The translations under genes were made by a program, and so were the position numbers. The notes under the pieces are model-generated. The model saw only the letters and a list, made by a program, of their open reading frames with translations, did not search any database and was not told where the DNA came from. From an uncultured Chloroflexia bacterium (GTDB taxonomy: Bacteria > Chloroflexota > Limnocylindria > Limnocylindrales > CSP1-4), in NCBI GenBank assembly GCA_963713975.1, contig OY970218.1, positions 1,177,683-1,241,682 on the forward strand: a DNA stretch of 64,000 bases, read 5' to 3'. This document shows positions 28,162 through 54,070 of this stretch, piece after piece. Numbering within the stretch: position 1 is the first letter of the stretch; every line of letters begins with the position of its first letter.

Positions 28162-28620
28162 TTGCCCCGCATATGGCGCATCATCGAACGCCCCTGCGGA
28201 GCAGCCGAACTGACAACGCTGGACAACGCACCCCCGCTGATCGAGACGAAGTTCTACGTCCCCAGGCGCCGAGGCGTGGTCGCACGTCCGAGACTGCACG
28301 AGCGTCTGTCCCGCGGGGTCGAGTCGAAGCTGTCGTTGGTCTCCGCCCCGGCAGGCTTCGGCAAGACGACGCTCCTAGCCGAATGGCTCGCCTCCGCTCC
28401 GAGCGGCCGAAGGTCGGTGGCGTGGCTCTCGCTCGACCCAGGCGACAACGAGCCCACCTCCTTCTGGGCTTACGTGATCGCGGCGCTGCAGGTGGCGGCG
28501 CCGGGGGTCGGCGCGAATTCTCTCCCGCTGCTGCGGGACCCGCCAAGGGCTACTGGCGCAACCTACGACGAGACCCCGGCCGATGGCCGGGGTCTCCAGC
28601 GACTGACTGACTCACATGTC
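28162..28620 (+). pseudogene. N-terminal fragment of a MalT/LuxR-type ATPase regulator, truncated
   Basis: ...ETKFYVPRRRGVVARPRL...LSLVSAPAGFGKTTLLAEWL...WLSLDPGDNEP..FWAYVIAAL is the canonical N-terminus of large LuxR-family regulators. The coding signal ends at ~28600, where repeats begin. Confidence 0.65.
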
Positions 28621-28655
28621 CCGACTCATGTGACTCATATGTCGCGACTCATGAC
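28607..28655 (+). repeat. Degenerate short tandem repeats GACTCA(C/T)(AT)ATGTC x4
   Basis: GACTCACATGTC-CC-GACTCATGT-GACTCATATGTC-GC-GACTCATGACATGG, immediately 5' of recombinase-tail copy C. Seen directly in the sequence. Confidence 0.6.
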
Positions 28656-28763
28656 ATGGCGCGCCCGACAGGAGTCAAACCGCCGGGTACCCACTCTGGA
28701 TTCAAGTCGATCCCGATCGCGGGCGCGCACGATTGGGAGGTCGGAACAATGCGCAGCGCGTAG
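28656..28763 (+). repeat. Copy C of the recombinase-tail repeat (encodes MARPTGVKPPGTHSGFKSIPIAGAHDWEVGTMRSA*)
   Basis: Starts GGCGCGCCCGACAGG and ends CCCGATCGCGGGCGCGC, like copies D, A and B. The reading frame and stop are conserved with the A/B tails. Confidence 0.55.
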
Positions 28764-28883
28764 CCGTGTTCGAGCGCTGGTCGACACCTGGACTGAAAGC
28801 TGCTGAAGCGGGACGCGTGCCATTGACAATTCGCCCAGCGAGTTCCCTGGGAGCGCGGCGCCCACAGGTTGGCGTGAACGCCC

Positions 28884-30125
28884 ATGCCGAGATGGGAATC
28901 GGCGTCGGCGATGATCCTCACGAATCGCCCGCTCGTGCCCTCTTCGTCCGACTATCATCTGGCCATTCGGTCGGCGCCGGTTCGGGGGGCATCCTTGAGC
29001 TCAGAACGTTTCGACGCGTGGGGGCTCCGCGGAGCATCCCCCATCGCCGAACCGCGCCTGCGGCTGAACGTCGTATGCCCCTACTACACGATGTTTCCGC
29101 TGTCCTTCCCGCTTGCTGCGCTGGCGGACGCCCAAGTTGGTGACGCGGTTCTGGACCCATTCTGCGGGCGGGGGACGACCGCGTACGCGGCCCGGCTGCG
29201 GGGCATGAGGTCGGTGGGAGTCGACGCAGACGCTGTGGCAGTCGCGGTTGCGAGGGCGAAGCTCGCATCCGGCTCGCCTGAGCAGGTCGAGGCCCGATTA
29301 GAGGAGCTCTTGGGGACAGTGCCCATACCGGCACACGTGCCCACTGGGGACTTCTGGAAGCTGGCATTCGACCACGGGACCCTGCTGGACATCTGCCGTG
29401 TCCGGGAAGCCCTCCTCACCCGTGACACGGCCTCCGACGTGCTGCTTCGGGCGATCCTCCTCGGCGTGCTCCACGGACCGCAATCGGTCAAAGCGCCCAA
29501 CTACCTGTCGAACCAGATGCCGCGCACGTATGCGACGAAGCCCGGACCGGCCGTGAGCTACTGGATTCGAACCGGGCACCTCGCCAGGCGCGTCAACATT
29601 CGCGAGGTGGTGCGCCGACGTGCGCGGTACATCCTGCGCGACGTGCCGGACGTGTCCTTCGGGAGGGTGCTGCGTGGCGATTCGCGGCGCCTCCTTGACC
29701 TCGGCATAGTCGAGCGATTCGACTACGTCGTGACTTCCCCGCCATACCTCGGAATGCGGAGCTACCGGCCCGACCAGTGGTTGCGGCACTGGTTCCTCGG
29801 CGGCCCTGAGGACGTGGACTACGGTATGACCGACATGATGTCGCCGCGGCTCGAGTCGTTCTCATCGGAATTGGCCAAGGTCTGGCATGGGGTAGCGAAG
29901 CTGAGCAGGCCGAGAGCCTCACTGACCGTCCGCTTCGGCGCGCTTCCCAGCGTCAAGGCCGATCCGGAGCGCGTCATGCGTGCGTCCTTGGTAGACACGG
30001 GCTGGGAAGTCACCTCAGTGAGGTCCGCGGGCACGGCGTCTGCGGGCAAACGTCAGGCGAACCACATGAACAACATTGGCGAGCCGGCGGACGAGATCGA
30101 CCTCCGCGCTCGCTTGATCGCTTGA
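28884..30125 (+). CDS. DNA methyltransferase (N6-adenine/N4-cytosine, amino-MTase)
   Basis: Motif I VLDPFCGRGTT and motif IV TSPPY ~190 aa later (alpha-type order). Stop overlaps the next start (ATGA). Confidence 0.8.
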   Translation: MPRWESASAMILTNRPLVPSSSDYHLAIRSAPVRGASLSSERFDAWGLRGASPIAEPRLRLNVVCPYYTMFPLSFPLAALADAQVGDAVLDPFCGRGTTAYAARLRGMRSVGVDADAVAVAVARAKLASGSPEQVEARLEELLGTVPIPAHVPTGDFWKLAFDHGTLLDICRVREALLTRDTASDVLLRAILLGVLHGPQSVKAPNYLSNQMPRTYATKPGPAVSYWIRTGHLARRVNIREVVRRRARYILRDVPDVSFGRVLRGDSRRLLDLGIVERFDYVVTSPPYLGMRSYRPDQWLRHWFLGGPEDVDYGMTDMMSPRLESFSSELAKVWHGVAKLSRPRASLTVRFGALPSVKADPERVMRASLVDTGWEVTSVRSAGTASAGKRQANHMNNIGEPADEIDLRARLIA

Positions 30126-31288
30126 TGTTCGACGACGAGAGCCTGCCGCGGATCCGGGCGGCAATCCGTGAGCAAACTGTCGGCGACCGTGTCTTGCTCG
30201 ACGGCATTCGCTCGGAGGTAAGGCCAGTTGCCGGGAACGTGAGAGCTATGCGCCCGCGGACCGCAACTGCCGTCTCGCTCGTTGCCAGTGATGGCGGCAA
30301 CAACAAGCTCGAGTTCGATCCGTTCTACGTCCAGCTCGTTCGGGTTGTCGATTCCTACGGGAAGGAGCTCTTCTTCGACGTGATTTCGCCGTCCACGGAC
30401 ACCGATGAACTCAGCAATCGGCAGTTCGATGCCGACGGTGCCCCGCAGACAGCCCTGGGTCTCCTAATGAAGGACCTAGGGGTCGACCGACTATACCGAT
30501 TGAGCCCGATGATCCCGACCGGTAGGAAGACGCGCGAAGAACCAGAGAAGGTCGCCCCGGGTTGGGTGATGACCTACCGGGACCTGTGCGAGTGGGCGGT
30601 CCTCTACGAGCGCATCGTAACGACCAGGTTCGGCACCGACACCCTCATCGTCCGCGACGGCTTCCTTCGCTCGAAGGTCTTCTCAGGCGACCTGTTTGTC
30701 AAGATGGGCGAGCATGTGCAGGCAGCGATCGACCGGATCTACCGCCAGGATCGACTCCGGGTCTTTCTCGTCGGACTGGCTAAGCACAGCCAAGTGCTCA
30801 CGCGATACAGCCTTGCGATGGCCATCGAGGGCACTCTGCCTCCTGGTGAGCCCAGGTACCTCCCGATTCCACGAGAGATGGAGGCTCGGGCGTACCGCTG
30901 GTCTGAGTACGCCCGTGGGCGCGAGGACGAGGCTGCCAGGGAGGGTGAAGCCGCCAAGTTCGTCCTTGGTTCGATGTACTTTGCCCGCTTCGGGAAAATG
31001 GCTGGCGACCCGGTGTGGGCGATCGACCTCCTAAGCTCCCAGACTGGGGCGGCGGCGGAGATCTTCGGCTATCTACTGCAGGATGCCATCGATGGTTTCC
31101 CGGTCCCGTACTACCCGCGGTGCCTGCAGCGCGCCCACGAGCACGCTCAGATCGTCGACTTCGACCTCCAGATACTTCAGGACGAGGTCTATCGGGCCGT
31201 CCGAGACCTTCTCCCTGGTGACAAGCAACCGGTACTCGACGCGCTGCAGCTGGGCGTGGGCGATGTCGCCGCAAGGAGGTATGGGTGA
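30122..31288 (+). CDS. NurA-like 5'-3' nuclease domain protein
   Basis: N-terminal LVASDGGNNKLEF...VQLVRVV fits the NurA (V/I)DGS catalytic motif. A second Asp block is LIVRDGFL. Translationally coupled to the MTase and to the HerA-like gene. Confidence 0.55.
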   Translation: MMFDDESLPRIRAAIREQTVGDRVLLDGIRSEVRPVAGNVRAMRPRTATAVSLVASDGGNNKLEFDPFYVQLVRVVDSYGKELFFDVISPSTDTDELSNRQFDADGAPQTALGLLMKDLGVDRLYRLSPMIPTGRKTREEPEKVAPGWVMTYRDLCEWAVLYERIVTTRFGTDTLIVRDGFLRSKVFSGDLFVKMGEHVQAAIDRIYRQDRLRVFLVGLAKHSQVLTRYSLAMAIEGTLPPGEPRYLPIPREMEARAYRWSEYARGREDEAAREGEAAKFVLGSMYFARFGKMAGDPVWAIDLLSSQTGAAAEIFGYLLQDAIDGFPVPYYPRCLQRAHEHAQIVDFDLQILQDEVYRAVRDLLPGDKQPVLDALQLGVGDVAARRYG

Positions 31289-33417
31289 GGATCTTCCCGA
31301 AGGACAAGGTTGTCGGGATCTTTCGGGGATTCAGCGAGGGCGGGCTCGAGTTCCACGCGGATCTCGTCCTCCCGTACCGCCCCGAGTTCCAGGCCTCGCC
31401 CATGCATGGCCAGTTCGTCGTGGTCGCGCTCGAGTCCGATGACGAGGCCGTCCTTGGCAGGATCACCTCAGTCAGCGCCCAAGGCCGCCTCGCCTCTGGT
31501 CCAGGTGAGGACTACAGCCTTCGGGCTGTCCGCGACGAGCGGTCTGTTCCGGAAGACCTTCGCGAGCAATACTTGAAATACCAGGTCGACATCCGGGTCC
31601 TCGGGGTGATTCGTGCGGTGAACGGCGAGGTCGTCTACGCGGCATCGCATCGACGACTCCCCCACGTCGGCAGCAAGGTCGCCTTTCTCGGCGACGAGCT
31701 CGTCTGCGAACTTGCCGGGGCAAACGCTGAGGGAGCCGAGCTTGGCTACTTCGCGCTCGGTGAGTTCATCTATGCGGGCGCAGACGAGAGATTCCAGGCG
31801 GAGCCGTGGATGCGGATGATGGCGCCGCGGGTGACGCCGAAGTTCCCGGTCCAGCAATTGGTTTCGCGTCGGACCTTCGTCTTCGCGAGGGCGGGCTTCG
31901 GGAAGTCGAATCTCGTGAAACTCCTGTTCAGCGACCTTTACAGCCAGACGCCGACCGTCGAGAAGCGCGGTGGTCGACGCGTACCGGTTGGGACGGTCAT
32001 CTTCGACCCCGACGGCGAGTACTTCTGGCCGGACGACAAGAATCGGCCCGGTCTGTGCGACGTACCAGGCCTGCGCGACCAAATCGTCGTTTTCACCAAC
32101 CGAAAGGGTCCAAGCGCCTACTACCAGTCGTTCGTGGTGGGCGGGATCAAGCTCGACATCCGTCGCCTACGGCCGGCGGATGTTGTCGCGATCGCCCTCG
32201 CCCCTGAGAAGCAGGATCAGCAGAACGTGCGGAAGCTGAAGGGCCTGAGCGACGGCCGCTGGACACAGCTTGTCGACGAGATCTACCGAAACGGAAACAA
32301 CGCGGACGAGCAGAAGCTGATCGAGATCCTAGGGCTGCAGGATCGCCAGGAGATGGAACTCTACGCAGCCCGAGCAAACATGACAGAGATCGTTCGGATG
32401 CTCCACGATCCGAGCAGCCAGATGATGGATATGCTCCTCGCGGCACTTCGCGACGGGAAGCTATGCGTCATTGATGTCTCCCAGATGCGGGGAACTCCCG
32501 CACTCGTTCTCTCGGGCCTAGTCCTCAATCGCATCTTCGACCACAACCAGCAGGAGTTCACCGAGGCTGCCCCTAAGACGATCCCGACAATCGCGGTCGT
32601 CGAGGAGGCACAGTCGGTCCTGTCGAACACGGGAAGCTCCGGATCAGGGCCCTACATCTCGTGGGTGAAGGAGGGCCGCAAGTACGACCTAGGCGCCGTC
32701 TTGATCACGCAGCAGCCGGGGAGCATTCCTCAGGAGATCCTCAGCCAGGGCGACAACTGGTTCATCTTTCACCTGTTGTCGGCTGGGGATCTCGCAGCCG
32801 CGAAACGTGCAAACGCTCACTTCAGCGACGACCTCCTCAGTTCGCTGCTGAACGAACCGCTCCCAGGACACGGCATCTTCTGGAGCTCTGCCGGGGGCCG
32901 GGCCTACCCAGTGCCAATCCGCGTTCTTCTGTTCGAATCGCTTTACCACCCATCCGATCCAACGTACACAAGAGATGCCGAGGACACCTACGCTGCCGGC
33001 CTCCGGGAGCGCTTCAGGAACACCGTCTCGCAGGTAAGCGATGCCGCGGGTGGGGCGACAGAAACACCCGCATCCGCCGATGATACGGCCACCGACGAAC
33101 ATACGATCGACTTCCTCGAGACCCTTAAGGAGTCGGCGATCCGCAAGGTCGAGAGGGACGGCGAGGTAGGCCGGCGCGTGAGGGGCGGCGGCATGCCATG
33201 GCGCGGGGTGGTGCAGTCCCTCGAGGACGCGCTACCCGACGAGATCGATGACAAGAACAATCTCGCCTACCAACTCGTGCGGCCCGCCCTCGACCAAATC
33301 CTCGGCCTTAACGGCTGGCATACAGAGCGCCGCGAGTCTAGATCAGTGGCCGGCAGGACGACCGTGTGGGTCGTTATGGGTCCCGAGCCTGCAGCTGATC
33401 GTCCTGCAGAGTCCTAA
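31285..33417 (+). CDS. HerA-like (DUF87/FtsK-HerA superfamily) ATPase
   Basis: N-terminal HAS-barrel-like segment, Walker A FARAGFGKSN, Walker B IAVVEEAQS. 710 aa. Confidence 0.7.
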   Translation: MRIFPKDKVVGIFRGFSEGGLEFHADLVLPYRPEFQASPMHGQFVVVALESDDEAVLGRITSVSAQGRLASGPGEDYSLRAVRDERSVPEDLREQYLKYQVDIRVLGVIRAVNGEVVYAASHRRLPHVGSKVAFLGDELVCELAGANAEGAELGYFALGEFIYAGADERFQAEPWMRMMAPRVTPKFPVQQLVSRRTFVFARAGFGKSNLVKLLFSDLYSQTPTVEKRGGRRVPVGTVIFDPDGEYFWPDDKNRPGLCDVPGLRDQIVVFTNRKGPSAYYQSFVVGGIKLDIRRLRPADVVAIALAPEKQDQQNVRKLKGLSDGRWTQLVDEIYRNGNNADEQKLIEILGLQDRQEMELYAARANMTEIVRMLHDPSSQMMDMLLAALRDGKLCVIDVSQMRGTPALVLSGLVLNRIFDHNQQEFTEAAPKTIPTIAVVEEAQSVLSNTGSSGSGPYISWVKEGRKYDLGAVLITQQPGSIPQEILSQGDNWFIFHLLSAGDLAAAKRANAHFSDDLLSSLLNEPLPGHGIFWSSAGGRAYPVPIRVLLFESLYHPSDPTYTRDAEDTYAAGLRERFRNTVSQVSDAAGGATETPASADDTATDEHTIDFLETLKESAIRKVERDGEVGRRVRGGGMPWRGVVQSLEDALPDEIDDKNNLAYQLVRPALDQILGLNGWHTERRESRSVAGRTTVWVVMGPEPAADRPAES

Positions 33418-33476
33418 GCGCAAACGGGAAGTCTAAAGTCCCACTCCGGGGCATCGCGAAGGTTCTCGAGCGTTCG

Positions 33477-34028
33477 ATGAGCGCGGACACGATCGGACGC
33501 TGGGAGCGCCGAGGCGAAGAAGGCCGCGAAGGGCGTCGGGGCGTCCTATCAGCCGGTCGGCTTGCCCGTGGACGAGATGCTGCACCCGTGATCATCTACG
33601 AGCCAGTCGAGGCCCACGCGCCACTCGGCGAGGATGACTACTGCGCGGCCCATGACCGCGAGCCGGGCCGCGACCGTTGGGACGCCGACGCGTATCACCG
33701 CAGACTCGCGGCCAGCGGCACCCGGGCCTGGCAGATCACCACCACGGGAGCGCGTGCGTTGTGGATCCAAGCCAGGGCTGGGTTCTCGTTCGCGGACGTC
33801 GGTCCCGAGCATGAGCCGTCGGCGCTGATCGCCCTCGCGCCCGGCACTCGGCTGCGCCTCGACTCTGTCAAGGTCGAGCGCTGCTACACACCCGAGGACC
33901 ACGAGTCCACGACACGGCGTTTCTGCGTCCTCGACGGGCCTTTCGCGGGCACATGCTGGAGCGCCAACGAGTCGGTCGCGCACGGGTCCGACTGGCGCTC
34001 GGACGACCCTGTCGACCCGCTCGCCTGA
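33477..34028 (+). CDS. Hypothetical protein
   Basis: 183-aa ORF. The likely real start is the internal GTG ~33577 (VIIYEPVEAHAPLGEDDYCAAHD...). No motif recognised. Confidence 0.35.
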   Translation: MSADTIGRWERRGEEGREGRRGVLSAGRLARGRDAAPVIIYEPVEAHAPLGEDDYCAAHDREPGRDRWDADAYHRRLAASGTRAWQITTTGARALWIQARAGFSFADVGPEHEPSALIALAPGTRLRLDSVKVERCYTPEDHESTTRRFCVLDGPFAGTCWSANESVAHGSDWRSDDPVDPLA

Positions 34029-34060
34029 GCGGTCGCGGATGCGCGATCGTGTCGACAGCC

Positions 34061-34520
34061 ATGACTGATCCGCGACTCGTGGCCTTCACATATCCAGGCG
34101 AGGACAAGCCGGTCGGCGTGATCGAGCGCGGGATGGCGCCAGACGTGGTCGGCATCATCGTCTCGGCCGCCGCCGCTGTTCGCCGCAGCCTCGACGCATT
34201 CCCTGGCCGCCGGATTGGACTGCCGCCATGCCTGCAGGGTGTGGGAGGTGGTTCTGAGGGACGAGAGACTCGCCGTGTGGACGAACGGCGGCGAGGGCGT
34301 GGACGACGACGTGGTGTCGTCCGACTACCGCATAGTGCCCCTCGACAAGCGCAGCGGCTATCGGGAGCGCGACGGCCAGGTTCACCGGCACTACTGGCTC
34401 GAGATCGGCCCCGAACGTTTCCTCTTCGACCCGACGGCCCACCAGTTCGACGACACAGGCGGCGTCTCGCTCGACCGGTACACGGTCAACGGCGAGGCCC
34501 TAAACCCTGCTGGCGAATAG
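34061..34520 (+). CDS. Hypothetical protein, apparently frameshifted near 34215
   Basis: ATG 34061 gives MTDPRLVAFTYPGEDKPVGVIERGMAPDVVGIIVSAAAAVRRSLDAFPGRRIG, then degenerates. Frame +1 continues protein-like (LDCRHACRVWEVVLRDERLAVWTNGGEG...NPAGE*). Confidence 0.3.
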
Positions 34521-34538
34521 GTCGGCGGCAGGCCGCCG

Positions 34539-35300
34539 CTATGCAGTCGCCCGTGGCAGGGTGAAGCCCGCGGCCTCGAGGACGGCGTTGAGGCGATCGT
34601 CGGCGATCCGGCGCTGCTCGTAGACGGCCGTCGCTACGAAGATCAGGCCTCCCTCGTTCTCCGCGATCAGCGCGTCGGCGCGGACCTCGGCGTCGGCGAC
34701 GAGTTCTTGGATCCGCACGATCGTGCGGGTCTTGACGTCCGACGTGAGATAGCCGTGCGGGAGACCGTCCTCGCCGCGGCAGAGGTCCGGGCCGCCGAAG
34801 CCCGCCTTGATGAACCGCATCGCGATCGCCGTGGCGGTGTCGTAGTCGTTCTCGCAGCCGCTGGTGTGCTCCCCTAGGATGCATCGCTCCGCTGCGGCCC
34901 CGGCCATCGCAACCAGGAGTGTGTCGAGCATTCGGCCCTTGGTCTCCCAGGGCACCGATGTGTCCTCGAACGGCCCGCCGAGCATGGTCGCCCCGCCGTG
35001 GCGAAGGGGTGATGTCAATGCCGCGCACCAGCACCTTGGTCGGCGAGGCCGCGGCGGCAATGGCATGCCCCTATTCGTGGATGGCCACGAGCCGCTGGCT
35101 GGCGTCCCACGCGAGGATGTGGTCGCGGGCCGCCGGGCGGACGGTCATCTCGACCATCTCGGTGTTGGACTTGAGGGCCGGGATCGTCAGGGCTGTCGTG
35201 CCCGTCTGCGCTTCTTCGTTCATGCAATTCACGCTGCGGCAGAAGGCTCGCAAACGCAATGGGGTCCGGGATCAAGCGTCCGCGAATTTGACGGCCGGCC
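34539..35300 (-). pseudogene. Degenerate FtsH-like M41 peptidase domain remnant (multiple frameshifts, no AAA domain)
   Basis: Three frames carry consecutive FtsH C-terminal blocks: ...SQRLVAIHE* (the HEXXH region), GHA...VLVRGIDITP..RRG, and GATMLGGPFEDTS...LLVAMAGAAAERCILGEHTSGCENDYDTATAIAMRFIKAGFG. Confidence 0.5.
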
Positions 35301-35358
35301 GCTCAGGCCGAGGGTCCGGCATCCAGACCACCGTCCCGCCCTGAAGAAGGACCTCGTC

Positions 35359-35802
35359 ATGACAATCCGGATCCCCGCCGCCTGCGCGGTTGCCTTGCTC
35401 GCCGCCGCATGCGGCGCCCCGCAGCACTCGATCACAGGCATTGTCGTTCTCGAAGACAGCGCGTCGGCGTTCTACAACGGCCTCACCGATGGCGTGGTCA
35501 CATCTCCAGACGGTTGGAAGGGGATCGACGGCTACGACGACATCGCCCGCGGCGCGGTCATCAAGTTGGTCAACGAGGCCGACACCGTCCTAGCCGTCGG
35601 CTCCCTGGGCATCGGGGTCCTGGGCACCGATGGCAAGCCGGGAGAGAACGGGTGCACCTTCCCGTTCACGTTCGAGAAGGTTGGCCGATGCAATGTCCTA
35701 CTCCGTGACGATCGGCACTCGCGGCGGACCGGACTGGACGCAGGCCCAGATGGAGTCGAACCACTGGAACATGGCGCTCACGCTCGGCACGTCCTAGCGC
35801 CG
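35359..35802 (+). CDS. Putative lipoprotein (possible frameshift near 35690)
   Basis: MTIRIPAACAVALLAAACGAP has a lipobox LAAAC. The protein-like sequence then runs to ~35700. The downstream in-frame part is low-complexity, and an alternate frame gives MSYSVTIGTRGGPDWTQAQMESNHWNMALTLGTS* ending at 35802. Confidence 0.4.
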
Positions 35803-35830
35803 ATTCTTGCCACACTTCAGGCCGGCGGCC

Positions 35831-37168: not shown

Positions 37169-37703
37169 GTGGTGAGCAGGAACGACCGCCGGACCGAGGA
37201 TCTCGTCCGCGACCACTTCAGGCGAGACGCGTACCCGCGTCTGACCTCAGAGGAGCAGAAGAGCGCAGCCCCCCGGATCACGAAGTGCCTCGGGGCCGCC
37301 AGCAAGCAGGGCCCCGGGATCGGCAAGCCCGAGTTCCTGCTCCATAGCCCTGACGCTCCCGGGTTCGTCGTGGTGATCGAGTGCAAGGCCAATTCGGCCA
37401 AGCACGCGAGCCGGAGCGTCGACCTCGCAGCCCCGTGACACGCGGGAGGCCAAGGACTACGCCGTCGACGGCGCCGTCCACTACGCCAAGCACCTCTCCA
37501 CCGCGTTCGACGTCATCACGATCGGCGTCAGCGGCGAGACGGCCGGGACCATGAAGGTCTCCACCTTCCGCCGTCTCAAGGGCGCGACGACCGCAGAGGA
37601 ACTGCGCGACGAGAACGGCCCGATCACGACCCTGCTCGGGTTCGACGACTACCAGCGCCTCCGCAACTTCGAGCGCATGAGTCTCGGGAGCACGGCGCTC
37701 TAG
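37169..37703 (+). pseudogene. Stand-alone PD-(D/E)xK restriction-endonuclease-like domain gene (HsdR_N/MmeI-N-like), frameshifted near 37430
   Basis: KPEFLLHSPDAPGFVVVIECKANSAKH shows a PD...ExK motif. The frame then shifts to ...RDTREAKDYAVDGAVHYAKHLSTAFDVITIGVSGE...STAL*. Confidence 0.45.
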
Positions 37704-37781: not shown

Positions 37782-40700
37782 GTGACTACAGCCCGTAGGC
37801 TGTCTCTCATGAATGTCAGTCGGGGGACCATTCGCTCCTACCTCAAGGGGCTCCAAGACATCTCGCTCGTCTCCGGCGCGACGGAGCACACGTACCGCGA
37901 GCCGCTCGTGACCTTCCTCGTGGCGGCGAGCAAGGACCTCGGCCTCGGGCAGGTCGGCGTCCACGGCGAGTTGCGCCTCGCGTCCGTCGGCCAGCCCGAC
38001 CTCCAGGTCGTCAACGCGGCCGGCTCGCCGATCGGCTACGGCGAGACCAAGGTCCCGGGCTCCGCGACCGACTTCGCCAGGACCCTCGAGAGCGAGCAGG
38101 TCGAGCGGTACCGAGCCAGCATCCAGAACCTCCTCGTCACCGACTTCATCCACTTCTCGCTGTTCCGCGCCGACGTCGGCCGCCTCGACGTGACGCTGGT
38201 CGAGACACCCGCCAAGATGGCCGCCGGCTCGCACGCGGTCTCGGAGCCCGTGCTCCTACAGTTCAGCCAGATGCTGGCGGCGTTCTTCTCGGCGTCCGCC
38301 CCGAGCGCGACCTCGGCCGAGCAACTGGCGGACGGACTGGCCCGCCGGGCGACGCTGCTGCGCGACGCCATCCGGACGCTCATCGGCGCGTCCCTGCCCG
38401 AGGGCGAAGCGCTGCGGCGTCTCTGGGACTTCTACAAGCGCAGCCTGATGTCGGACATGGACGCGGACGACTTCGCGGACACGTACGCCCAGACGCTGAC
38501 CTACGCGCTGTTCCTCACCCGCCTCGAGAAGGGGCCGATCACCGATCTCGAGGCGGCCTGGAAGGCGATCCCGACGGACGTCCCGATCATGAAGTCGGCG
38601 ATCGAGCCGCTCCGTGCCGCGGGCAAGATCCCCGACCCGCTGGCTGTCTGGCTCGAGGACTCGCTGCACCTGCTGGCCGCTACGCCGGACTCGGTCATCG
38701 AGACGATCGGCCACCCGAGCGCCGGCAAGTCCGACCCGATCCTGTACTTCTACGAGCACTTCCTCGCGGCCTACGACAAGGTCGAGCGGATCAAGAAGGG
38801 CGTCTACTACACGCCCCGCCCGCTGGTCGACTACTTGGTCCGGGCGGTGGACGACACCCTCCGCGCCTCCTTTGGCAAGCCACTGGGCCTCGCCGACAAG
38901 GACGTGCGGCTCCTGGACCCGGCCCTCGGGACCGGCACGTTCCTCCTCGCCGGCGCCCAGAAGGCGGCAGACGAGACGGAAGCCGCTCTCGGCTCCGGCG
39001 CGGTCAAGGGGGTCCTCGAGGACCACGTCCTGCGCCACTTCTACGGGTTCGAGTTGCTGCCGGCGCCGTACACGATCTCGCACCTCAAACTCGCCCTCTT
39101 CGCCCGCGACCACAACGTCAAGTTCCTCGACAAGCGCGCCCAGGTCTTCCTGACCAACACGCTCGGCGACCCGGTCCAGCGCGCCGACGATGGCGGCCTG
39201 CTCGCGTTCTTCGTGCCGGGGCTCATCGAGGAGGCGGCGGCTGCCGAGCGGGTCAAGGCCGACCAGCCGATCCTCGTGGTCATCGGCAATCCGCCCTGGT
39301 CCGCGACGAGTCACAACAAGCAGCCCGAGATCGAGCGCCTCTTCGACGCCTGGAAGAACGTCGACGGTCGACCCGGGAGCCCGAAGATCAAGGACGCCCG
39401 GATCGCGCTCAACGACGACTACCTGAAGTTCCTGCGCTGGGCGGTCTGGAAGGTCGTGGAGCAGCCCGGCGGCGCACGCCACGGCATCGTCGCCTTCGTC
39501 ACGAACCACGGCTTCATCAACAACCGTGTCCACCGCGGCGTCCGCAAGGCGCTCCTCGATGCCTTTGACGACATCTACGTCCTCAACCTCCAGGGCAACC
39601 AGCGCCTGTGGGTCAAGGGCGTCGTCGACGAGAAGGTGTTCCCCGACGTGCAGCAGGGCGTCGCGATGACGGTCCTGGTACGGCGGGATGTCGAGAAGAC
39701 CGGCCTGGCGAAGGTGCGCTATCGCGACCGACGCGGAACACGCGCCGAGAAGTACGACACGGCGAATAGCGCAAGGCTCGACGATGACGGGTGGGTTCAC
39801 GTCCCGCAATCGGCCCCGTACTGGTCATTCGCCCCGGCGGACGCGCCGGTGGAGGGGGAGGAAGCCGGCTCCTACGACACTTGGCCGTCCGTCGTGGACA
39901 TCTTCCCTGTGTCGAGTTCGGGGATCCAGTCCTCACACGACGACCTGGTGTCCGACTTCAGCGCTGCCGCCGTCGGGAACAAGATCGCCGAGGTAGCCGA
40001 TCGGTCGATCTCCGACGACACGCTTCGCGAGCGCTACAAGATCAAGGAGAACGATCGCTGGCGGTGGGCCGTCCAGCGCAAGGCGTTCGCGGGGCTCGAC
40101 TCCGCGAAGGTGATTCCCTGGCTCTACCGCCTCTTCGACCGACGCTACGTGTACTGGGATCCGCTGTTCGTACAGTGGCCTCGAACGAAGGTGATGCGCC
40201 ACCTGCTCCCTCGCCCGATCGGTCTCGGCGGCGACAAGCGGCTGGCGCTCGTGGTGCAGCGCGCCCGTCCGATCACCACGATCGCGACCGTCGTCCGTGG
40301 CCCCGCGACGGCGCATGTCACGAGCGAGTGGTGCCACGTCTACCCGCTGAGGCTGTCTGACGCGACTGAGGAGGAAGTCCTCCTGCCCGCGCCCGACGAG
40401 TGGCGAGAGAACCTGAACGCCGACCTCTCCAAGCGCCTCGCTGCGGCATACGGCCGGCGCCCGTCGGTCGACGAGGTGGCCTGGTACGTCTTCGCGATCC
40501 TGTCTGCTCCGTCGTACCGTCGCCAATTCGCGGCTGCGCTGGCGATCGACCATCCTCGAATCCCGTTCGCGTCCGCCGAGGCGACCTTCAGGATCGGCGC
40601 ATCACTGGGCGAGAAACTTGGCCGCGTCCACCTCCTCGAGGCCGAGGTATCGCCCGACATTCGCTTCGTTGGCAGCGGCACGAACGTGATCGAGGGAGTC

Positions 40701-40973
40701 CGCTACGACCAAGAGTGCGAGCGAGTCTGGGTGAATGCCACCCAGGCCTTCACGGGCGTCCCGAACGAAGCCTGGATCTGGGGCGAGCACTTCCGACCTC
40801 TCGAGCACTTCCTTGATGACCGTCAGGGGCGACGGCTCGACACGGAGCAGATCGGCGCCTTCCAGTCGGCTATCCACGCTGTCCGCGAGTGCATCCGCCT
40901 TGGCCCGATCCTGGACGCGGCGCTGGACAGCGTTCTGTCAGAACCACTCGACGTCACCGAGCCCTTGGTTTAG
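37782..40973 (+). CDS. Type IIL/IIG restriction-modification enzyme (MmeI-like: N-terminal PD-ExK nuclease + gamma-class N6-adenine MTase + TRD), 1063 aa
   Basis: N-terminal QPDLQVV...GYGETKV (D-x12-ExK). MTase motifs YYTPRPLVDYLV, LDPALGTGTFLL (motif I) and VIGNPPW (motif IV). A long C-terminal target-recognition region follows. Confidence 0.75.
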   Translation: MTTARRLSLMNVSRGTIRSYLKGLQDISLVSGATEHTYREPLVTFLVAASKDLGLGQVGVHGELRLASVGQPDLQVVNAAGSPIGYGETKVPGSATDFARTLESEQVERYRASIQNLLVTDFIHFSLFRADVGRLDVTLVETPAKMAAGSHAVSEPVLLQFSQMLAAFFSASAPSATSAEQLADGLARRATLLRDAIRTLIGASLPEGEALRRLWDFYKRSLMSDMDADDFADTYAQTLTYALFLTRLEKGPITDLEAAWKAIPTDVPIMKSAIEPLRAAGKIPDPLAVWLEDSLHLLAATPDSVIETIGHPSAGKSDPILYFYEHFLAAYDKVERIKKGVYYTPRPLVDYLVRAVDDTLRASFGKPLGLADKDVRLLDPALGTGTFLLAGAQKAADETEAALGSGAVKGVLEDHVLRHFYGFELLPAPYTISHLKLALFARDHNVKFLDKRAQVFLTNTLGDPVQRADDGGLLAFFVPGLIEEAAAAERVKADQPILVVIGNPPWSATSHNKQPEIERLFDAWKNVDGRPGSPKIKDARIALNDDYLKFLRWAVWKVVEQPGGARHGIVAFVTNHGFINNRVHRGVRKALLDAFDDIYVLNLQGNQRLWVKGVVDEKVFPDVQQGVAMTVLVRRDVEKTGLAKVRYRDRRGTRAEKYDTANSARLDDDGWVHVPQSAPYWSFAPADAPVEGEEAGSYDTWPSVVDIFPVSSSGIQSSHDDLVSDFSAAAVGNKIAEVADRSISDDTLRERYKIKENDRWRWAVQRKAFAGLDSAKVIPWLYRLFDRRYVYWDPLFVQWPRTKVMRHLLPRPIGLGGDKRLALVVQRARPITTIATVVRGPATAHVTSEWCHVYPLRLSDATEEEVLLPAPDEWRENLNADLSKRLAAAYGRRPSVDEVAWYVFAILSAPSYRRQFAAALAIDHPRIPFASAEATFRIGASLGEKLGRVHLLEAEVSPDIRFVGSGTNVIEGVRYDQECERVWVNATQAFTGVPNEAWIWGEHFRPLEHFLDDRQGRRLDTEQIGAFQSAIHAVRECIRLGPILDAALDSVLSEPLDVTEPLV

Positions 40974-40975
40974 CC

Positions 40976-41676
40976 GTGTCGATTCGGCCGAAGCCGGAGG
41001 ACATAGAGGAGTTGGCACGGCTCATGGAGATCCGTGACAGCGCCCACCTGGCCGGCCACCGGCTGGACCCCTTCACGCTGTTCAACTTCAGCGGGACCGA
41101 AGCCCTGTTGGTGAGTCCCGGGCGGACCCAGGGGGACAGCGTCTCGAAGGTAGCGATGCGCAGACTCGAGGACCTCGACTTGTTCCGGGTGATCGACCGG
41201 TCGGAGAAGGGCTTCACGTTCGACCTCGTCGATGATGTCAGCGATCGCCTCGAGGAGATGCGCGTCGAGGTGGGGCTTCCCTCGCGCATGGGCGAACTCG
41301 AGGCGTCGGTCCTGCGGAGGCTGCGAGGAAGTCGGCCGAGGCGGCGACGGAGGCCCTTGAGGCCCGCGTCGGGGACGACCGGCGGGCGCGAGCGGAGCGC
41401 CGGACGGCATTCGCACACCGAGTAGGCCGCTGGGCTCGATGGCTGACGCGGATCGCGCTGGGCCTCCTGTACGTCGGCGTCGTCGTGGTCGCCGGCTACT
41501 TCGTGTCCTCGAACCTGCCGCTCGCGCTCGTCGTGGGCGTTGTCGGGGTTGCCGTCGTCCTGGCGGCGCTCGACTGGCTGCTGCACGTCGACGGCTTCGC
41601 GCTCGCCGCTGCGCTCGAGGCGCGGGTGGTCAAGCGCGTCACCGGGTGGCTCGAGTCCTTCGATCCGGGGTCGTGA
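40976..41676 (+). CDS. Hypothetical protein with C-terminal TM helices; probable frameshift near 41320
   Basis: GTG start 3 nt after the RM-enzyme stop. A soluble N-terminal part (…FDLVDDVSDRLEEMRVEVGLPSRMGELEASVLRRL) is followed, in a shifted frame, by AEAATEALEARVGDDRRARAERR...GLLYVGVVVVAGYFVSSNLPLALVVGVVGVAVVLAALDWLL...*. Confidence 0.35.
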
Positions 41677-41721
41677 TCCGCGGCGTCCTGAGGCCCGCAG
41701 ACAGCCTCGAGGGCAGGCCGG

Positions 41722-42807
41722 TTGCCTCAACGCCTCTCGCACGGCGACTATGTGCCAGTGAAGTACGTCGAGTGGGTCCAGGTCGTGGCCGATGCGTACG
41801 CCTCGGACCCTGGCGGCTCGCACGACCTCGTCGGCAGTGATCGCATCGCCAAGCGGCTCAACATCGCCGCCGACGACCGTGCTCGTGATGATGCCCTGAC
41901 CAATGCACTGGACGACCTCCGCGGGATCAGCGCGTTGGCGTTCACCGACTACGGGTGGATCGAGCCGACCGCAGCGACCTGGCAGACCCGAGAGGGCGTC
42001 CGCCTTCAGAGCGGATGGCCGACCCTGGTTCGCGCGCCGCTGAACACCGAACGAGAAGAGGTTCTGGCCGCGGCAGTGCGGCTGTCGGAGACGCGGCACG
42101 ATGACTGGGCGGACATGACGTGGACGACAGGACAAGAAGTCCGAGTTGAACTCGGGTGGTCCGAGGATGAGCACGACATCCACCTGATCGCGCACGACCT
42201 CGAGGCCGCCGGACTGATCGAACTGACCGCAATGGCTGGCGGAGACGCCTCTCTCCACATCCGTCCGACGTACGCGGGCGTCGTGCGGGCAACCGAGCGG
42301 ATCTCCACGGAGTGGGATATCCGTCTGCGCGAGATGGTCGCTGAGTGGGAAACGACGACCGTCGAGTTCAAGCGCACGGTCGAACTCGGAACGACGGCCA
42401 GAAACGCCGAGTTCGCCAAGGACATCGACTCCCTGGCGAACACGAAGTCGAGCGGATCAGCCCGGCACCTGATCGTCGGATACGACCCGAAGACGCACGA
42501 GTTCGCCTACCCAGTCGACCCCGCACAACTGCAGCAGGACCGTCTGGAGCAGATCCTGAACCCATACGCGACGCCGGCGCACGACATTCGGTCATTCACC
42601 CTCGAACACGAATCCGGCAAGGGCCTGGTCGGCATCATCGAGGTCAGGCGCGATCCAACCAAGTTGCCCCATCGGATCGCCAAGGCGGGAGGCAACGTGG
42701 TCGTCGGCACCATTCATGTCCGGCACGGCAGCCAGGTCGAACCGGCGACGCCGGTTGAGGAGTTGGCTCTCATCGCGGAGGGCAAGGCAGCCCGCGCCGA
42801 AGCCTAG
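41722..42807 (+). CDS. AlbA_2 (Schlafen-like putative DNA-binding) domain protein
   Basis: EWETTTVEFKRTVELGT...RHLIVGYDPKTHE matches the AlbA_2 / divergent-AAA N-terminal signature (E..EFK). 361 aa. Confidence 0.55.
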   Translation: MPQRLSHGDYVPVKYVEWVQVVADAYASDPGGSHDLVGSDRIAKRLNIAADDRARDDALTNALDDLRGISALAFTDYGWIEPTAATWQTREGVRLQSGWPTLVRAPLNTEREEVLAAAVRLSETRHDDWADMTWTTGQEVRVELGWSEDEHDIHLIAHDLEAAGLIELTAMAGGDASLHIRPTYAGVVRATERISTEWDIRLREMVAEWETTTVEFKRTVELGTTARNAEFAKDIDSLANTKSSGSARHLIVGYDPKTHEFAYPVDPAQLQQDRLEQILNPYATPAHDIRSFTLEHESGKGLVGIIEVRRDPTKLPHRIAKAGGNVVVGTIHVRHGSQVEPATPVEELALIAEGKAARAEA

Positions 42808-42977
42808 CCGAGCCAGCAGGCCCACCTGGACGTGCGCAGGCTGGATGCCCGACGAGATAAGCGCCAGCAAAGTGGCCGCCCCTAGGCTGGCGTCCGGCCG
42901 CGCTCCGGTTCAGGTAAGCGTCGGTCCGGCGGGGCTCAGAACCCGACCGGACGCCTGGTCCTGGCCGACGCGGCCGA

Positions 42978-43196
42978 CTACTCGTTTGCCGGGGCGCGCC
43001 ACTGGTGGAGGACGACCTCGCCGCAGTCGCGGCAGACCCAGGTGCTCCGGTACGACTTGGGCTGGCCGTCATTGAGGACCGGGATCGTGCGGTCCATCCG
43101 GACCCAGCGCTCGCCGTGGCGGTGCTCGAGGCGCGGGGTCTGCTCGCCCAGGACTCTGAACTGCGCCGCGTGGATCACCGAGGCCTCCGGAGACAT
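42978..43196 (-). CDS. Small Zn-ribbon-like hypothetical protein (72 aa)
   Basis: ...WVCRDCGEVVLHQW... The ORF sits between convergent genes. Confidence 0.3.
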   Translation of the reverse strand: MSPEASVIHAAQFRVLGEQTPRLEHRHGERWVRMDRTIPVLNDGQPKSYRSTWVCRDCGEVVLHQWRAPANE

Positions 43197-43244
43197 TGGC
43201 CTCGATGATACCGAACGGGTGTTCTATCGAGGTCTGCCGAACGG

Positions 43245-43499
43245 CTAGTCCGACAGGGCGATGTCGCCCCGGCGCAGGAAGCCGCGCTCGGCGGCATCGG
43301 TGAAGGTTGCGGCCCAGCCGGCCCGCGGCGCAGGAATGCCGAGGCGCGATGGGCTCTCGCGGTCCCAGGTGCGAGCGATCAGGATGATCTGCGCGACGCG
43401 ATCCGGGAACCGCTGCGGCAGCGCTCGCGACCGCGCGCGGGTTCGGCTCGCCTGAGCCTGCTCGGTGACCATCGGATTATCCATGGGTGGGTCACCCAC
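43245..43499 (-). CDS. Hypothetical small protein (84 aa)
   Basis: ORF only; weak. Confidence 0.2.
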   Translation of the reverse strand: MGDPPMDNPMVTEQAQASRTRARSRALPQRFPDRVAQIILIARTWDRESPSRLGIPAPRAGWAATFTDAAERGFLRRGDIALSD

Positions 43500-43579
43500 C
43501 TTCCGGCCGACGCCGTCCGGGCGATACCGACCAGAAGGCCTATGCCTCCGGCCGCCGGCCGCTCTGGATTCGCAAGACC

Positions 43580-44773
43580 CTACCGCTTCGTGGCGGCCCG
43601 GCGCACGAGGACCATCAGGTCACGCGCCATGGCCGGCCGCTGTTGGCTCAGGTCGTCGCGTGTCTGCGCTGGCGCTGAGAGGTGACTGACGATCCGGTCG
43701 CCACCGCTCATGTTCATGGTCATGGAGGTCGGGCTGGCTTCCTGCTCCGCGCGAGTCCGCCAGGCCGTGTAGGAGGCGCCGAGGAGGGCTGCAACGAGGA
43801 CCACGTGGCTCGCCCGCCGGCCGGCATCTATCCGCTCGAGGACTCGGTCCACGAAGGTCAGATCCGCCTCCAGGTCGTCCAGCACCTCCTCCTCGACGAT
43901 TCCGCGGAGGTACATGCCGCGTTCCGCAGTACGGATGACGGGGCGCGTGACGACGACGGTGCCCTCCTCGTCGATGGCGACCCAGCCACGGGATTGGCGG
44001 GCCACCAGGCTGTTGCCGCTGATGCCGGTGGTTGTTCCTTCACCCCGCTCGAGGACCGGTCGGTCGCCGTAGAGCGCCTCCCGCTCGAGCCAGGACGCGA
44101 GGGTCGGGTCCTCGAGTTCGGACGGCCGAAGGAGTGCGGAACGAGGCGTGGCCGTCCCGACCAACACGAGCGTGGCCTCGCCGACTGTGTTCCGGGCCTG
44201 CGGCACCAGAGCGAGCGCTCGCTCGAGCCCGTCCTTGGCCGCCTCCGCCGCGAGGGCCGGGGCGGCACCTGCGCGCGGTGGCGCGGATCGGGTGGGCGTG
44301 GCGAGCGGCTCGTCGACGGCATCCGGGACATCGACGTCGAAACCCCAGGCCTTGAGTTGTTCGAGCGCCGCCGCGAAGGCCGGTTCGGGATGTTCAGGGT
44401 CGAGGTGGCGGTACACCGGATTGGTGTTGCTGGCCAGGGTGACCCCGCTCTGCTTCAACACGCAGATGCGACTGCGCAGGCGCGGCATTGTGCGGGCACG
44501 AGCAATCTCGTCGGCGATGTTCGGTCGGGTGAACTTGCCGGCCTCCTGGTCGACGGTCGCGAACACGACCACCGCCTGCGATCGCTCGAGGTATGCGTTC
44601 ACGTTGTCTTCAGGGGAGTACGCATCGTCGATCAGGGGCAGATCAGACACGATGTAGCCCTGAACGCTGGGGCGAAGCAGATCCCGGAACGGTCGCGCCA
44701 AGGCAGCCTTCTGTCCCTCGGTGACGCTGAGGAATACCGCTGGTCGCGCCCGCACGCCCGCATCCGTTGTCAT
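43580..44773 (-). CDS. Hypothetical protein with an N-terminal TIR-like/flavodoxin-like fold (tentative)
   Basis: Alternating beta-strand blocks VFLSVTEG...VVVFATVDQE...ICVLKQSG are reminiscent of TIR/SLOG domains. Start taken at the ATG for MTTDAGVRARPAVF... Confidence 0.35.
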   Translation of the reverse strand: MTTDAGVRARPAVFLSVTEGQKAALARPFRDLLRPSVQGYIVSDLPLIDDAYSPEDNVNAYLERSQAVVVFATVDQEAGKFTRPNIADEIARARTMPRLRSRICVLKQSGVTLASNTNPVYRHLDPEHPEPAFAAALEQLKAWGFDVDVPDAVDEPLATPTRSAPPRAGAAPALAAEAAKDGLERALALVPQARNTVGEATLVLVGTATPRSALLRPSELEDPTLASWLEREALYGDRPVLERGEGTTTGISGNSLVARQSRGWVAIDEEGTVVVTRPVIRTAERGMYLRGIVEEEVLDDLEADLTFVDRVLERIDAGRRASHVVLVAALLGASYTAWRTRAEQEASPTSMTMNMSGGDRIVSHLSAPAQTRDDLSQQRPAMARDLMVLVRRAATKR

Positions 44774-44817
44774 GGCCACATCGTCGCATCCCGACGCCGA
44801 CGTACGCTTGCATCCAT

Positions 44818-45697
44818 GACGGATGCACTGCTCGACGCGATCAAGAAGGGGGTTGCCGACCCGGCCCAAGCGCCGGCGATCCACGACCTCATGCACCAGC
44901 AGGTCGCGGACGTGGTCAAGGTCATCGGGACGGACGAGCGGTTCGCGATCGGCATCGCTTTCTCAGACGAGGAACTGGCGCGCCGAACGGATGCCCTCGA
45001 GGAAGTCGCGGCTCCCATCGTCCGAGCGGCCGCGTGGGGTGGCTTCTACGGCGCTGCGAATACGCGCCCGTTGTGGCCCGGGCTCGTCGGACGGCTCGCC
45101 AACGGCGTCGACCGGACCCGGAAGAACCCCGCGCACGACGTCTGGCCATTGCTCGACCTGCACCCCGCGGTTCTCCTCTCGTACGCGGCAGGAGTCGGCG
45201 CGATGGCGGGCGGTCGTCCAGACCTACTCGGCGCTTTGCTCGCCGGCCGCACCGTGCTGGAGGGAAACGAACTTCGCGCCGTCGGCCTGCAGATCCACGC
45301 GACGACGCCCTTCCTCAACGACAGCATCGCCAACCGTCTGCCGGGACGAAGGACAACAACGCCGGCAAGCGATCGGGTCTACCAGGCGTTGGCGTCAGCC
45401 TTCGATGGTCTGGTCGTTGACGAGTCTGTGCTCGCCCATGCCTTCGACCGATACGAGTACGTCCTCAGCCTGATGCGGTTCGACGCGTCGAGAGGCGACG
45501 GCGACCGAGGCTGGGCACCCGCTGGCAGATTCGCTTGGCGACGCGAGGACGGCAGCCGCGTCATGGACGAGATGAAGGCAGAGATCGAGGCGAGGGGCAC
45601 GGAGTGGCCGCTCCTCCGCGAAGGGCTATTCAAGGGTTCGTCGGACCGACTGGCGACCGCCGTCGAGGGGCTCGGAAAGACACTCCAGCGCTGGTAG
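44818..45697 (+). CDS. Hypothetical protein (divergent from 43580-44773)
   Basis: ~290 aa counted from MTDALLDAIKKG... No motif recognised. Confidence 0.4.
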
Positions 45698-46615: not shown

Positions 46616-46619
46616 CCAG

Positions 46620-54062: not shown

Positions 54063-54070
54063 GGACGGCG

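Follow-up and report, generated by a model that had tools for sequence, protein, structure and literature searches.

We analyzed a 64,000-nucleotide stretch of contig OY970218.1 from an uncultured Chloroflexia bacterium (called the window here; all positions count from its first letter), in which a reading made from the sequence alone, here the sequence-only reading, had singled out a block at 28162 to 45697 as resembling a defense island. The coordinates of the block reflect a switch in gene content, since the ordinary flanking genes stop at an MFS transporter gene on the left (28037) and an epimerase gene on the right (45704). Because spurious long open reading frames (ORFs) are plentiful in this high-GC window (68 to 72% GC), genes were called by third-position GC (GC3) and a codon-usage model. 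The block holds the remnant of a regulator gene; a three-gene operon encoding a methylase, a NurA-like protein, and a HerA-family ATPase (referred to here as the trio); a single-chain restriction-modification (RM) enzyme of type IIL; a divergent gene pair encoding a TIR-like protein and a PDC-S65-type domain; and a number of small or decayed genes. The trio, on which this analysis centers, comprises the following genes:

28911 to 30125, plus strand: S-adenosylmethionine (SAM)-dependent amino-methyltransferase (Pfam N6_N4_Mtase, 1.2e-7; PADLOC MTase_II, 9e-15)
30122 to 31288, plus strand: NurA-like nuclease of the RNase H fold, TdpB-like by predicted fold
31285 to 33417, plus strand: HerA/FtsK-family ATPase of 710 amino acids (Pfam DUF87, 4.6e-17; Walker A ARAGFGKS, Walker B VVEEAQ)

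The sequence-only reading had described these genes as a methylase-NurA-HerA operon, and that description held. The operon extends from 28884 (or 28911) to 33417, its genes are joined by 4-bp start/stop overlaps and are translationally coupled, the middle protein is matched by Foldseek to the TdpAB and NurA folds, and the third protein carries DUF87. The trio has the lowest GC content in the window (0.625 to 0.66), with a GC3 of 0.77 to 0.80 against a flank median of 0.85.

In the methylase gene, the first ATG lies at 28884, the start at 28911 received the top score in our own codon model, and homology begins at residue ~55. Motif I of the protein (DPFCGRGTT, residues 91 to 99) lies N-terminal to motif IV (SPPY, residues 285 to 288), and both motifs are retained among homologues (SPPY in 54/54, DPFCGRGTT in 51/55). 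Given these two motifs, the enzyme is probably of the N4-cytosine or N6-adenine type.

The NurA-like protein had no match in Pfam, PADLOC, or NCBIfam; the Pfam NurA model (PF09376) gave no match in the window protein and matched 1 of 42 family members (E = 0.032). Among the acidic residues that are invariant are D57 (VASDGGNN) and D179 (VRDG). For an AlphaFold (AF2) model of the protein (pLDDT 81), the best Foldseek match was chain G of TdpAB (E = 1.3e-10, TM 0.61 to 0.66, 19% identity), followed by archaeal NurA and then by the PIWI domain of Argonaute.

The HerA-family ATPase ends in a variable C-terminal tail of ~150 amino acids. In a phmmer search against PDB sequences, TdpA was its best match (8wet_A, 6.3e-19, confined to the ATPase core at residues 358 to 554), Sulfolobus HerA matched at 1.9e-9, and the SIR2-HerA and DUF4297-HerA ATPases ranked below TdpA among solved relatives. 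The repair-type HerA models of NCBIfam matched weakly (~1e-13, 49 bits versus an equivalog cutoff of 800 bits).

Distribution and divergence of the trio

The NurA-like family is large, with more than 1,868 homologue clusters and 417 metagenome loci, and relatives 62 to 67% identical to the window protein occur in Methanosarcina, ANME-2 archaea, Planctomycetota, Calderihabitans, and many metagenomes. We counted gene context in 86 loci from bacteria and archaea. The methylase gene immediately preceded the NurA-like gene in 56/59 informative loci, and the HerA gene immediately followed it in all 55 informative loci. DNA homology between the window and the closest trio relatives is confined to 29034 to 32970, and therefore the trio moves as a unit.

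The neighbors of the trio vary. Among 125 neighboring ORFs from 68 loci, for which the 25 commonest of 102 Pfam families were listed, and in six annotated loci, we found toxin-antitoxin pairs, transposases, helicases, type I RM genes, CRISPR RAMP proteins, and HNH nucleases. One close relative of the window trio (locus L166) is surrounded by Kiwa, an Mrr-type nuclease, a Schlafen-type helicase, and PIN/Phd genes, and another (L164) by IS1595, a methylase-Mrr fusion, and SocA. The two closest relatives also share a 384-amino-acid ORF that has no Pfam match and lies just upstream of the methylase gene (L164, 1642 to 2796; L165, 4444 to 5598); neither the window nor any other locus that was inspected contains it. 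The family had no match in PLSDB plasmids and two partial matches in 2.9 million viral contigs. These two, on near-identical contigs, are truncated copies covering residues 2 to 192 only (IMG/VR L162, 4664 to 5242; L163, 2951 to 3529).

Across 32 complete trios, the mean pairwise distances of the parts were as follows:

HerA core (residues 1 to 555): 0.24
NurA-like protein: 0.34
Methylase: 0.54
HerA C-terminal tail (residues 560 to 710): 0.64, the most variable part of the trio

The NurA-like protein's divergence and that of the HerA core were strongly correlated (r = 0.85), consistent with tight coevolution of the two, and the methylase was loosely coupled to NurA-like/HerA (r = 0.37). When NurA-like divergence was controlled for, the methylase retained a small partial correlation with the HerA tail (partial r = 0.23, P ~ 0.003).

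Other genes of the block

Second in interest after the trio is the right end of the block, where the following genes lie:

42978 to 43196, minus strand: gene of 72 amino acids that travels with the TIR-like gene (a 68% identical homologue lies downstream of the TIR-like gene in locus L160)
43580 to 44770, minus strand: TIR-fold protein of 396 amino acids (373 in the source-genome call; Foldseek, AF2 pLDDT 85)
44813 to 45697, plus strand: stand-alone PDC-S65 C-terminal domain of 294 amino acids (PADLOC PDC-S65, PDLC05061, 7.9e-37, profile positions 302 to 587 of 592)

The sequence-only reading had pointed to 43580 to 45697 as a pair and as one of the most interesting unknowns. The genes turned out not to overlap: codon usage is that of a coding region on the minus strand at 43680 to 44699 and on the plus strand at 44760 to 45599, and the two genes are divergent, with a gap of 42 bp. 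A plus-strand ORF of 671 amino acids spans 43682 to 45697, and its first ~377 codons (43682 to 44812) are an antisense shadow of the TIR-like gene, a typical high-GC artifact. A homology search with this whole ORF found no match because half of it is such a shadow. The interest of the region did stand, as the interval appears from its conservation to encode a real two-gene candidate system. In locus L160, the divergent pair and the 72-amino-acid gene recur together (74% identity for the TIR-like protein, 77% for the PDC-S65-type domain, and 68% for the small protein); in locus L159, the TIR-like gene stands alone, adjoining Hachiman and an Mrr-helicase gene.

That the minus-strand gene might encode a TIR-like protein, as had been proposed, gained support at the level of the predicted fold. 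The N-terminal ~140 amino acids of the model adopt a TIR/flavodoxin-like fold, with Foldseek matches over ~135 to 150 residues to TIR-STING (6.7e-5) as well as to SARM1, SPARTA TIR-APAZ, ThsB, and plant TIR domains; matches to nucleoside deoxyribosyltransferase/DNPH1 folds are of similar quality. The protein has 82 homologues, the distant ones of which carry DUF4062 (8.7e-20); the window protein itself had no Pfam match at E <= 1, and its C-terminal domain has no assignment. Residue E88 is invariant in 39 sequences and could correspond to the catalytic glutamate of TIR domains. A search of PDB sequences returned no match for the TIR-like protein or for the PDC-S65-type domain. Longer homologues of the TIR-like protein were considered as possible fusions to the PDC-S65-type domain, to which they showed no similarity.

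An exhaustive search found the PDC-S65-type domain in 1,395 cluster representatives (E <= 1e-3). In some proteins it stands by itself, and in others it follows, on the C-terminal side, a SIR2_2 (as in PDC-S65), TIR_2, Pkinase, PilZ, or ParA-like domain. The PADLOC candidate PDC-S65 (~590 amino acids) consists of SIR2_2 and the C-terminal domain, and the window gene is homologous to its C-terminal ~290 amino acids. The window version differs in that it lacks the N-terminal SIR2 domain, which is found only in relatives of ~580 amino acids, and has a separately encoded TIR-fold protein as its divergent partner. From these domain architectures, the TIR-fold protein would be the effector and the PDC-S65-type domain its sensor or regulator. 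The split pair supports the idea of a PDC-S65-type domain that serves as a portable sensor or regulator for many effectors.

Two genes related to type IIG and IIL enzymes lie between the trio and this pair:

37169 to 37703, plus strand: small PD-(D/E)xK nuclease-domain gene (PEF...VIECK; PADLOC type IIG N-terminal model, 1.4e-6)
37782 to 40973, plus strand: intact single-chain type IIL/IIG RM enzyme of the MmeI/DrdV family (PADLOC REase_MTase_IIG, PDLC03610, 2.9e-160)

The larger gene is an ordinary new member of the MmeI family, in agreement with the proposal of an MmeI-like single-chain enzyme. It matches Pfam Type_ISP_C (8.7e-48) and N6_Mtase (7.9e-11), and its best PDB match is DrdV (7lo5, 3.7e-31). 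As in the MmeI/DrdV enzymes, a PD-ExK nuclease (D73...E88-T-K90), a gamma-class N6-adenine methylase (GTGTF at 383, NPPW at 503), and a C-terminal target-recognition domain are combined in one chain. The upstream gene had been presented as a stand-alone PD-ExK nuclease-domain gene. The domain is present, by the PADLOC match only, and the case is weaker than claimed; the gene is frameshifted near a CCCC run at 37431 to 37434, a sign either of genuine decay or of a mistake in the assembly.

The remaining genes of the block are small, decayed, or without clear relatives:

33477 to 34028, plus strand: orphan ORF of 183 amino acids with a weak, patchy coding signal
34061 to 34520, plus strand: orphan gene, apparently frameshifted once (from frame +1 to +2 near 34150 to 34230, by codon-usage segmentation)
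34539 to 35223, minus strand: decayed M41 (FtsH-type) metallopeptidase gene (Peptidase_M41, 1.3e-9; frameshift)
35359 to 35700, plus strand: small putative lipoprotein gene (signal peptide ending in LAAAC; coding signal fades past ~35630)
35831 to 37033, minus strand: orphan of 400 amino acids with an N-terminal excisionase/MerR-type helix-turn-helix (HTH_17, 1.6e-9; TIGR01764, 7.5e-10)
40976 to 41673, plus strand: small gene or genes encoding a soluble N-terminal part and then two predicted transmembrane helices (frame change near 41250 to 41340)
41722 to 42807, plus strand: protein of 361 amino acids with a weak C-terminal AlbA_2/Schlafen-like match (PF04326, E = 1.1e-4, 23.2 bits versus a cutoff of 25.3)

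The interval from 33477 to 34520, the other unknown to which most interest had been attached, appears to hold a pair of small orphan ORFs, of which the second is frameshifted; the first had no family match in Pfam or PADLOC and no tblastn match in the fetched loci. Both the FtsH-peptidase remnant and the excisionase-type helix-turn-helix protein were borne out. In the former, the HExxH motif reads IHE*GH (35065 to 35082), where an in-frame TAG (35071 to 35073) replaces the alanine codon that is normally found; the latter has two CxxC motifs (C180 and C252) and no match in plasmid or phage collections. A longer ORF spanning the putative lipoprotein gene (34864 to 35976) had no Pfam match, and the gene at 40976 to 41673 had weak membrane-protein matches only in Pfam. 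The protein that had been called AlbA_2/Schlafen-like scored below the Pfam cutoff and received no support from PADLOC or NCBIfam, so that this assignment is weak.

Edges and origin of the block

At the left edge of the block lie a broken regulator gene and three kinds of repeats:

28162 to 28542, plus strand: 5' remnant of a MalT/LuxR-family STAND regulator gene (TKFYVPRRR...GFGKTT...AWLSLD, with GFGKTT as Walker A)
28570 to 28596: perfect 12-bp inverted repeat with a 3-nt loop, from a repeat search, directly after the regulator break
28608 to 28653: two 23-nt tandem repeats (TGACTCAyATGTCsCGACTCATG), 91% identical
19096 to 19170, 20864 to 20940, and 28657 to 28735, all plus strand: three copies of a dispersed ~75-nt repeat

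The truncation of the regulator gene and the short tandem repeats after its break had both been proposed before and were found. The remnant matches the NCBIfam MalT model at 7e-21 (residues 26 to 118 against positions 2 to 91 of a 903-residue profile), and its homology to MalT-type regulators stops after ~110 residues, at 28542; the open frame continues to 28806 in unrelated sequence. Six full-length relatives (828 to 986 amino acids) were drawn from loci in which the regulator gene adjoins an orthologous MFS gene, and a seventh, incomplete ORF of 320 amino acids was left out. In tblastn searches, these relatives matched the remnant only at 28228 to 28542, and their remaining ~800 residues had no match anywhere in the 64 kb except to the LuxR helix-turn-helix of the other regulator in the window. 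Because the C-terminal part is found nowhere in the window, the regulator gene was truncated with loss of sequence and not just split by an insertion. The regulator gene is divergent from the MFS gene in three other loci (L049, L055, and L035), as it is in the window.

The 23-nt motif has no other occurrence in the window. The ~75-nt repeat was matched three times against 0.04 matches expected; two of its copies lie on either side of an adenosine deaminase gene, and the third comes after the cut regulator gene. Its core reads TGGCGCGCCCGACAGG.GT...AC, with ATCCCGATC ~50 nt further on. On the minus strand, the repeat ends in ...CGGGCGCGCCA, which resembles a tRNA 3' end. The repeat was considered as a tRNA or attachment (att) site and rejected, as ARAGORN and Rfam were negative and its predicted folding was unremarkable. 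In the whole window, ARAGORN found no tRNA, and no Rfam family reached its gathering score.

The recombinase scar that had been placed at this junction was not found. The junction ORFs had no Pfam match at E <= 1, and no integrase domain was detected among the Pfam-scanned ORFs, which cover part of the window. Direct repeats joining the left junction to the right end of the block gave chance-level matches only.

The flanks contain ordinary genes:

17068 to 18165 (minus strand) and 18311 to 18919 (plus strand), left flank: two Fic/DOC-domain genes, side by side
24273 to 26573, left flank: STAND/LuxR regulator of 766 amino acids
26607 to 28037, left flank, adjoining the block: MFS transporter
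45704 to 49274, minus strand, right flank: cluster encoding an epimerase with DUF1731, YndJ, a DCC1-like oxidoreductase, an SRPBCC protein, and a second epimerase

The match of the second Fic/DOC gene is limited to the C-terminal part of the domain. The left flank also carries adenosine deaminase, DUF2938, and DUF4386 genes, which are accessory but ordinary. A run of DUF4386, unknown, STAND/LuxR, and MFS genes recurs in a Chloroflexia metagenome-assembled genome (L046) in the same order as at 22334 to 28037 of the window, with 76 to 87% amino acid identity for the two genes checked. If the window is taken as Actinomycetota-like, such sharing would imply either a transfer of this run between phyla or an error of binning or labeling. 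Farther to the right, 53463 to 58344 encodes a protein matched in two stretches by the Phd/YefM antitoxin domain, along with a PrgI-like/ParA-like protein and a T2SSE-type secretion ATPase; this group may belong to a pilus or to an apparatus of the conjugation type.

The sequence-only reading took the block as a whole to carry the signature of horizontally acquired immunity loci. For its modules, this claim is supported. Both the trio and the TIR-like pair are self-contained units in unrelated genomes, with homologues 72 to 81% identical at the DNA level, and their neighbors there are often defense genes such as Kiwa, Hachiman, Mrr-type nucleases, and toxin-antitoxin pairs, as well as transposases. 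Since both units recur with unrelated flanks, horizontal acquisition of the individual modules is indicated. For a single integrative element, the claim finds no support, as no integrase (in the ORFs scanned), att repeats, or tRNA was found. It is thus reasonable, judging from sequence comparison, to read the block as a defense island of separately acquired modules. Base composition, suggested as a further check, gave a divided answer: the GC3 of the block overall does not differ from that of the flanks (P = 0.31), and the trio alone is atypical. A scan of genome contigs anchored on the MFS gene returned a best relative that was 79% identical, too distant to show presence or absence of the island, and that shared nothing from the block or the right flank.

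Alternatively, the block could be an old, slowly decaying variable region in which truncation and pseudogenes arose by local deletion and decay and a number of the apparent frameshifts come from assembly errors. This explanation is partly compatible with an island of acquired modules and draws on the flank-like GC3, the native look of the type IIL and helix-turn-helix genes, the failure to find mobility genes or att sites (in the ORFs scanned and in the junction repeat search), the ~800 missing regulator codons, which point to deletion rather than simple insertion, and at least one frameshift at a CCCC run. As a full account, we think it unlikely, since the trio and the TIR-like pair have such close homologues in unrelated contigs with unrelated flanks and the GC content of the trio is clearly below that of its surroundings. 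Moreover, a second contig from another run, possibly not independent, repeats the calls for the ORFs of 183, 90, and 148 amino acids identically, which also argues against purely random assembly errors.

RM-like reading of the trio and known systems

On balance, we favor as fairly probable the view that the block is a mosaic defense island, assembled piecemeal at a destroyed MalT-type gene, with the trio as a three-gene RM-like core and other layers of defense around it. The RM-like reading of the trio follows from its architecture, which is that of TdpABC with a methyltransferase in place of TdpC. The methylase would mark host DNA, and the NurA-like nuclease would join the hexameric, HerA-like ATPase in a translocase-nuclease complex, by which incoming DNA would be threaded and degraded. 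On self DNA, the methyl marks would be expected to stall or exclude this complex, analogous to the phosphorothioate block of TdpAB. The variable C-terminal tail of HerA covaries weakly with the methylase and is a candidate reader or coupling element. A more specific version of this view is held only tentatively, as a possibility a little short of even. In it, the trio constitutes a distinct, unnamed RM class in which unmethylated DNA is destroyed by an ATP-driven, TdpAB-like translocase-nuclease and not by a restriction endonuclease of the classical sort, the HerA tail reads or couples methylase specificity, and the system has spread recently between Bacteria and Archaea (>60% identity across domains). 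The trio carries no name in PADLOC-DB v2, in NCBIfam release 20, or in the literature searched, where the nearest described systems are ICEth1 and TdpABC.

Several observations weigh against the RM-like and defense-island interpretation. The significant matches of the methylase are limited to the SAM-binding motif, where RNA and protein methylase families also score weakly. A profile search of PDB sequences found no similarity of the NurA-like protein to TdpB (E <= 10), and with the Pfam NurA model also unmatched, the link to TdpB rests on predicted fold. Defense genes are frequent next to the trio but far from universal, as the commonest family, DEAD helicases, accounts for 5 of the 125 neighboring ORFs. 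Some of the frameshifts in the block may be homopolymer assembly errors. Finally, three of the four proteins of the Thermus ICEth1 operon (Tth111II, the NurA-like protein, and the HerA-like TdtA) are required for DNA donation, not defense (PMC5365140).

The last point opens a different explanation, in which the trio, perhaps together with the type IIL enzyme, works as a machine for DNA donation ("transjugation") like that of ICEth1 and serves gene transfer and not immunity: the restriction enzyme would nick or cut the chromosome, and a NurA/HerA-type complex would process the DNA and pump it outward. In Thermus thermophilus HB27, the ICEth1 operon encodes Tth111II (type IIG, 1,106 amino acids), a NurA-like protein (377 amino acids), TdtA (HerA-like, 568 amino acids), and a PF01555 methylase (410 amino acids) (PMC5365140), and the same four kinds of genes lie within 12 kb of one another in the window. 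The likeness to this tdtA operon, carried on a mobile element (Blesa et al. 2017, PMC5365140), is one of the kinds of genes combined, and the differences are considerable. In ICEth1, the four genes form one operon on an integrase-bearing, tRNA-inserted element, whereas the window has a different gene order and a separate type IIL gene, 4.4 kb from the trio and beyond decayed genes, with a native-like GC3 of 0.90 against 0.77 to 0.80 for the trio. A type IIG homologue occurred near the trio in 3/86 loci only, by which we rejected the type IIL enzyme as a member of the trio. Neither an integrase (ORFs scanned), a tRNA (window search), nor att repeats (junction repeat search) were found, the window HerA has 710 amino acids and an extra tail against the 568 of TdtA, and the closest trio relatives lie among defense genes. 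We therefore regard a DNA-donation machine as quite unlikely here.

It is very improbable that NurA-like/HerA is instead a housekeeping machine for double-strand-break end resection with an incidental methylase: although a HerA DUF87 ATPase, a NurA-type fold, and weak repair-type HerA matches are present, methylase linkage is near-universal, the repair-type scores fall far under the equivalog cutoffs, the trio is patchy across bacteria and archaea at >60% identity, atypical in GC, and mobile on its own, and Mre11/Rad50-type families occur neither among the 25 commonest listed families of neighboring ORFs nor in six annotated loci.

Compared with known systems, the trio shares with the archaeal/Deinococcus HerA-NurA end-resection complex a HerA DUF87 ATPase and an RNase H-fold, NurA-type nuclease encoded by adjacent genes; it differs in its obligatory methylase linkage, its mobility as a unit, the lack of a Pfam NurA match, and the lack of Mre11/Rad50 linkage among the listed neighbors. 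Like SIR2-HerA and DUF4297-HerA, it combines a HerA-family ATPase with an effector in a compact, defense-type operon, and the PADLOC and NCBIfam models of antiphage HerA proteins match it weakly, with scores far under the family cutoffs. Its effector is NurA-like and not a SIR2 or Cap4-type nuclease, and a methylase is added. MADS, an eight-gene system (mad1 to mad8), was rejected, as PADLOC matches were at the domain level only (mad8, 2e-10; mad2, 4.8e-9; mad1, 5e-4) and NCBIfam scores fell below the cutoffs (MAD1, 22 versus 80 bits; MAD2, 14 versus 720 bits).

The closest comparison is with TdpABC. Its enzyme TdpC reportedly modifies DNA, and a complex of TdpA and TdpB is said to degrade unmodified DNA. 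Two articles cite the system as a phosphorothioate-based RM system (PMC12914056, PMC13223576). TdpABC (PDB 8wet/8wfd) has three components, as does the trio: an enzyme that makes the modification, a hexameric ATPase of the HerA-like kind (TdpA), and a NurA-like nuclease (TdpB), to which the nuclease of the trio is linked by predicted fold. The two differ in chemistry, since TdpC forms phosphorothioate whereas the modification gene of the trio encodes a SAM-dependent amino-methyltransferase, and in the ATPase, which is ~125 amino acids longer in the window than TdpA and carries the variable tail. They also differ in distribution, as the trio family occurs widely among mesophiles, both bacterial and archaeal, and TdpABC has reportedly been found in thermophiles.

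If the trio does restrict unmethylated DNA, then (i) a HerA/NurA-type restriction machine such as TdpAB also works with ordinary base methylation; (ii) the RM repertoire gains a common, compact system found in both bacteria and archaea; and (iii) the Thermus ICEth1 operon, built of the same kinds of parts, acquires an alternative reading. The trio is readily testable, as it has three genes, its catalytic motifs are clear, and natural variants are numerous; the TIR-like/PDC-S65 pair offers a second candidate for tests. Within the block, the trio would be the new element, a variation on the TdpAB-type restriction machine, with the TIR-like/PDC-S65 pair second in interest and the remainder apparently ordinary. 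By this comparison, the trio looks like a methylation-based cousin of TdpABC.

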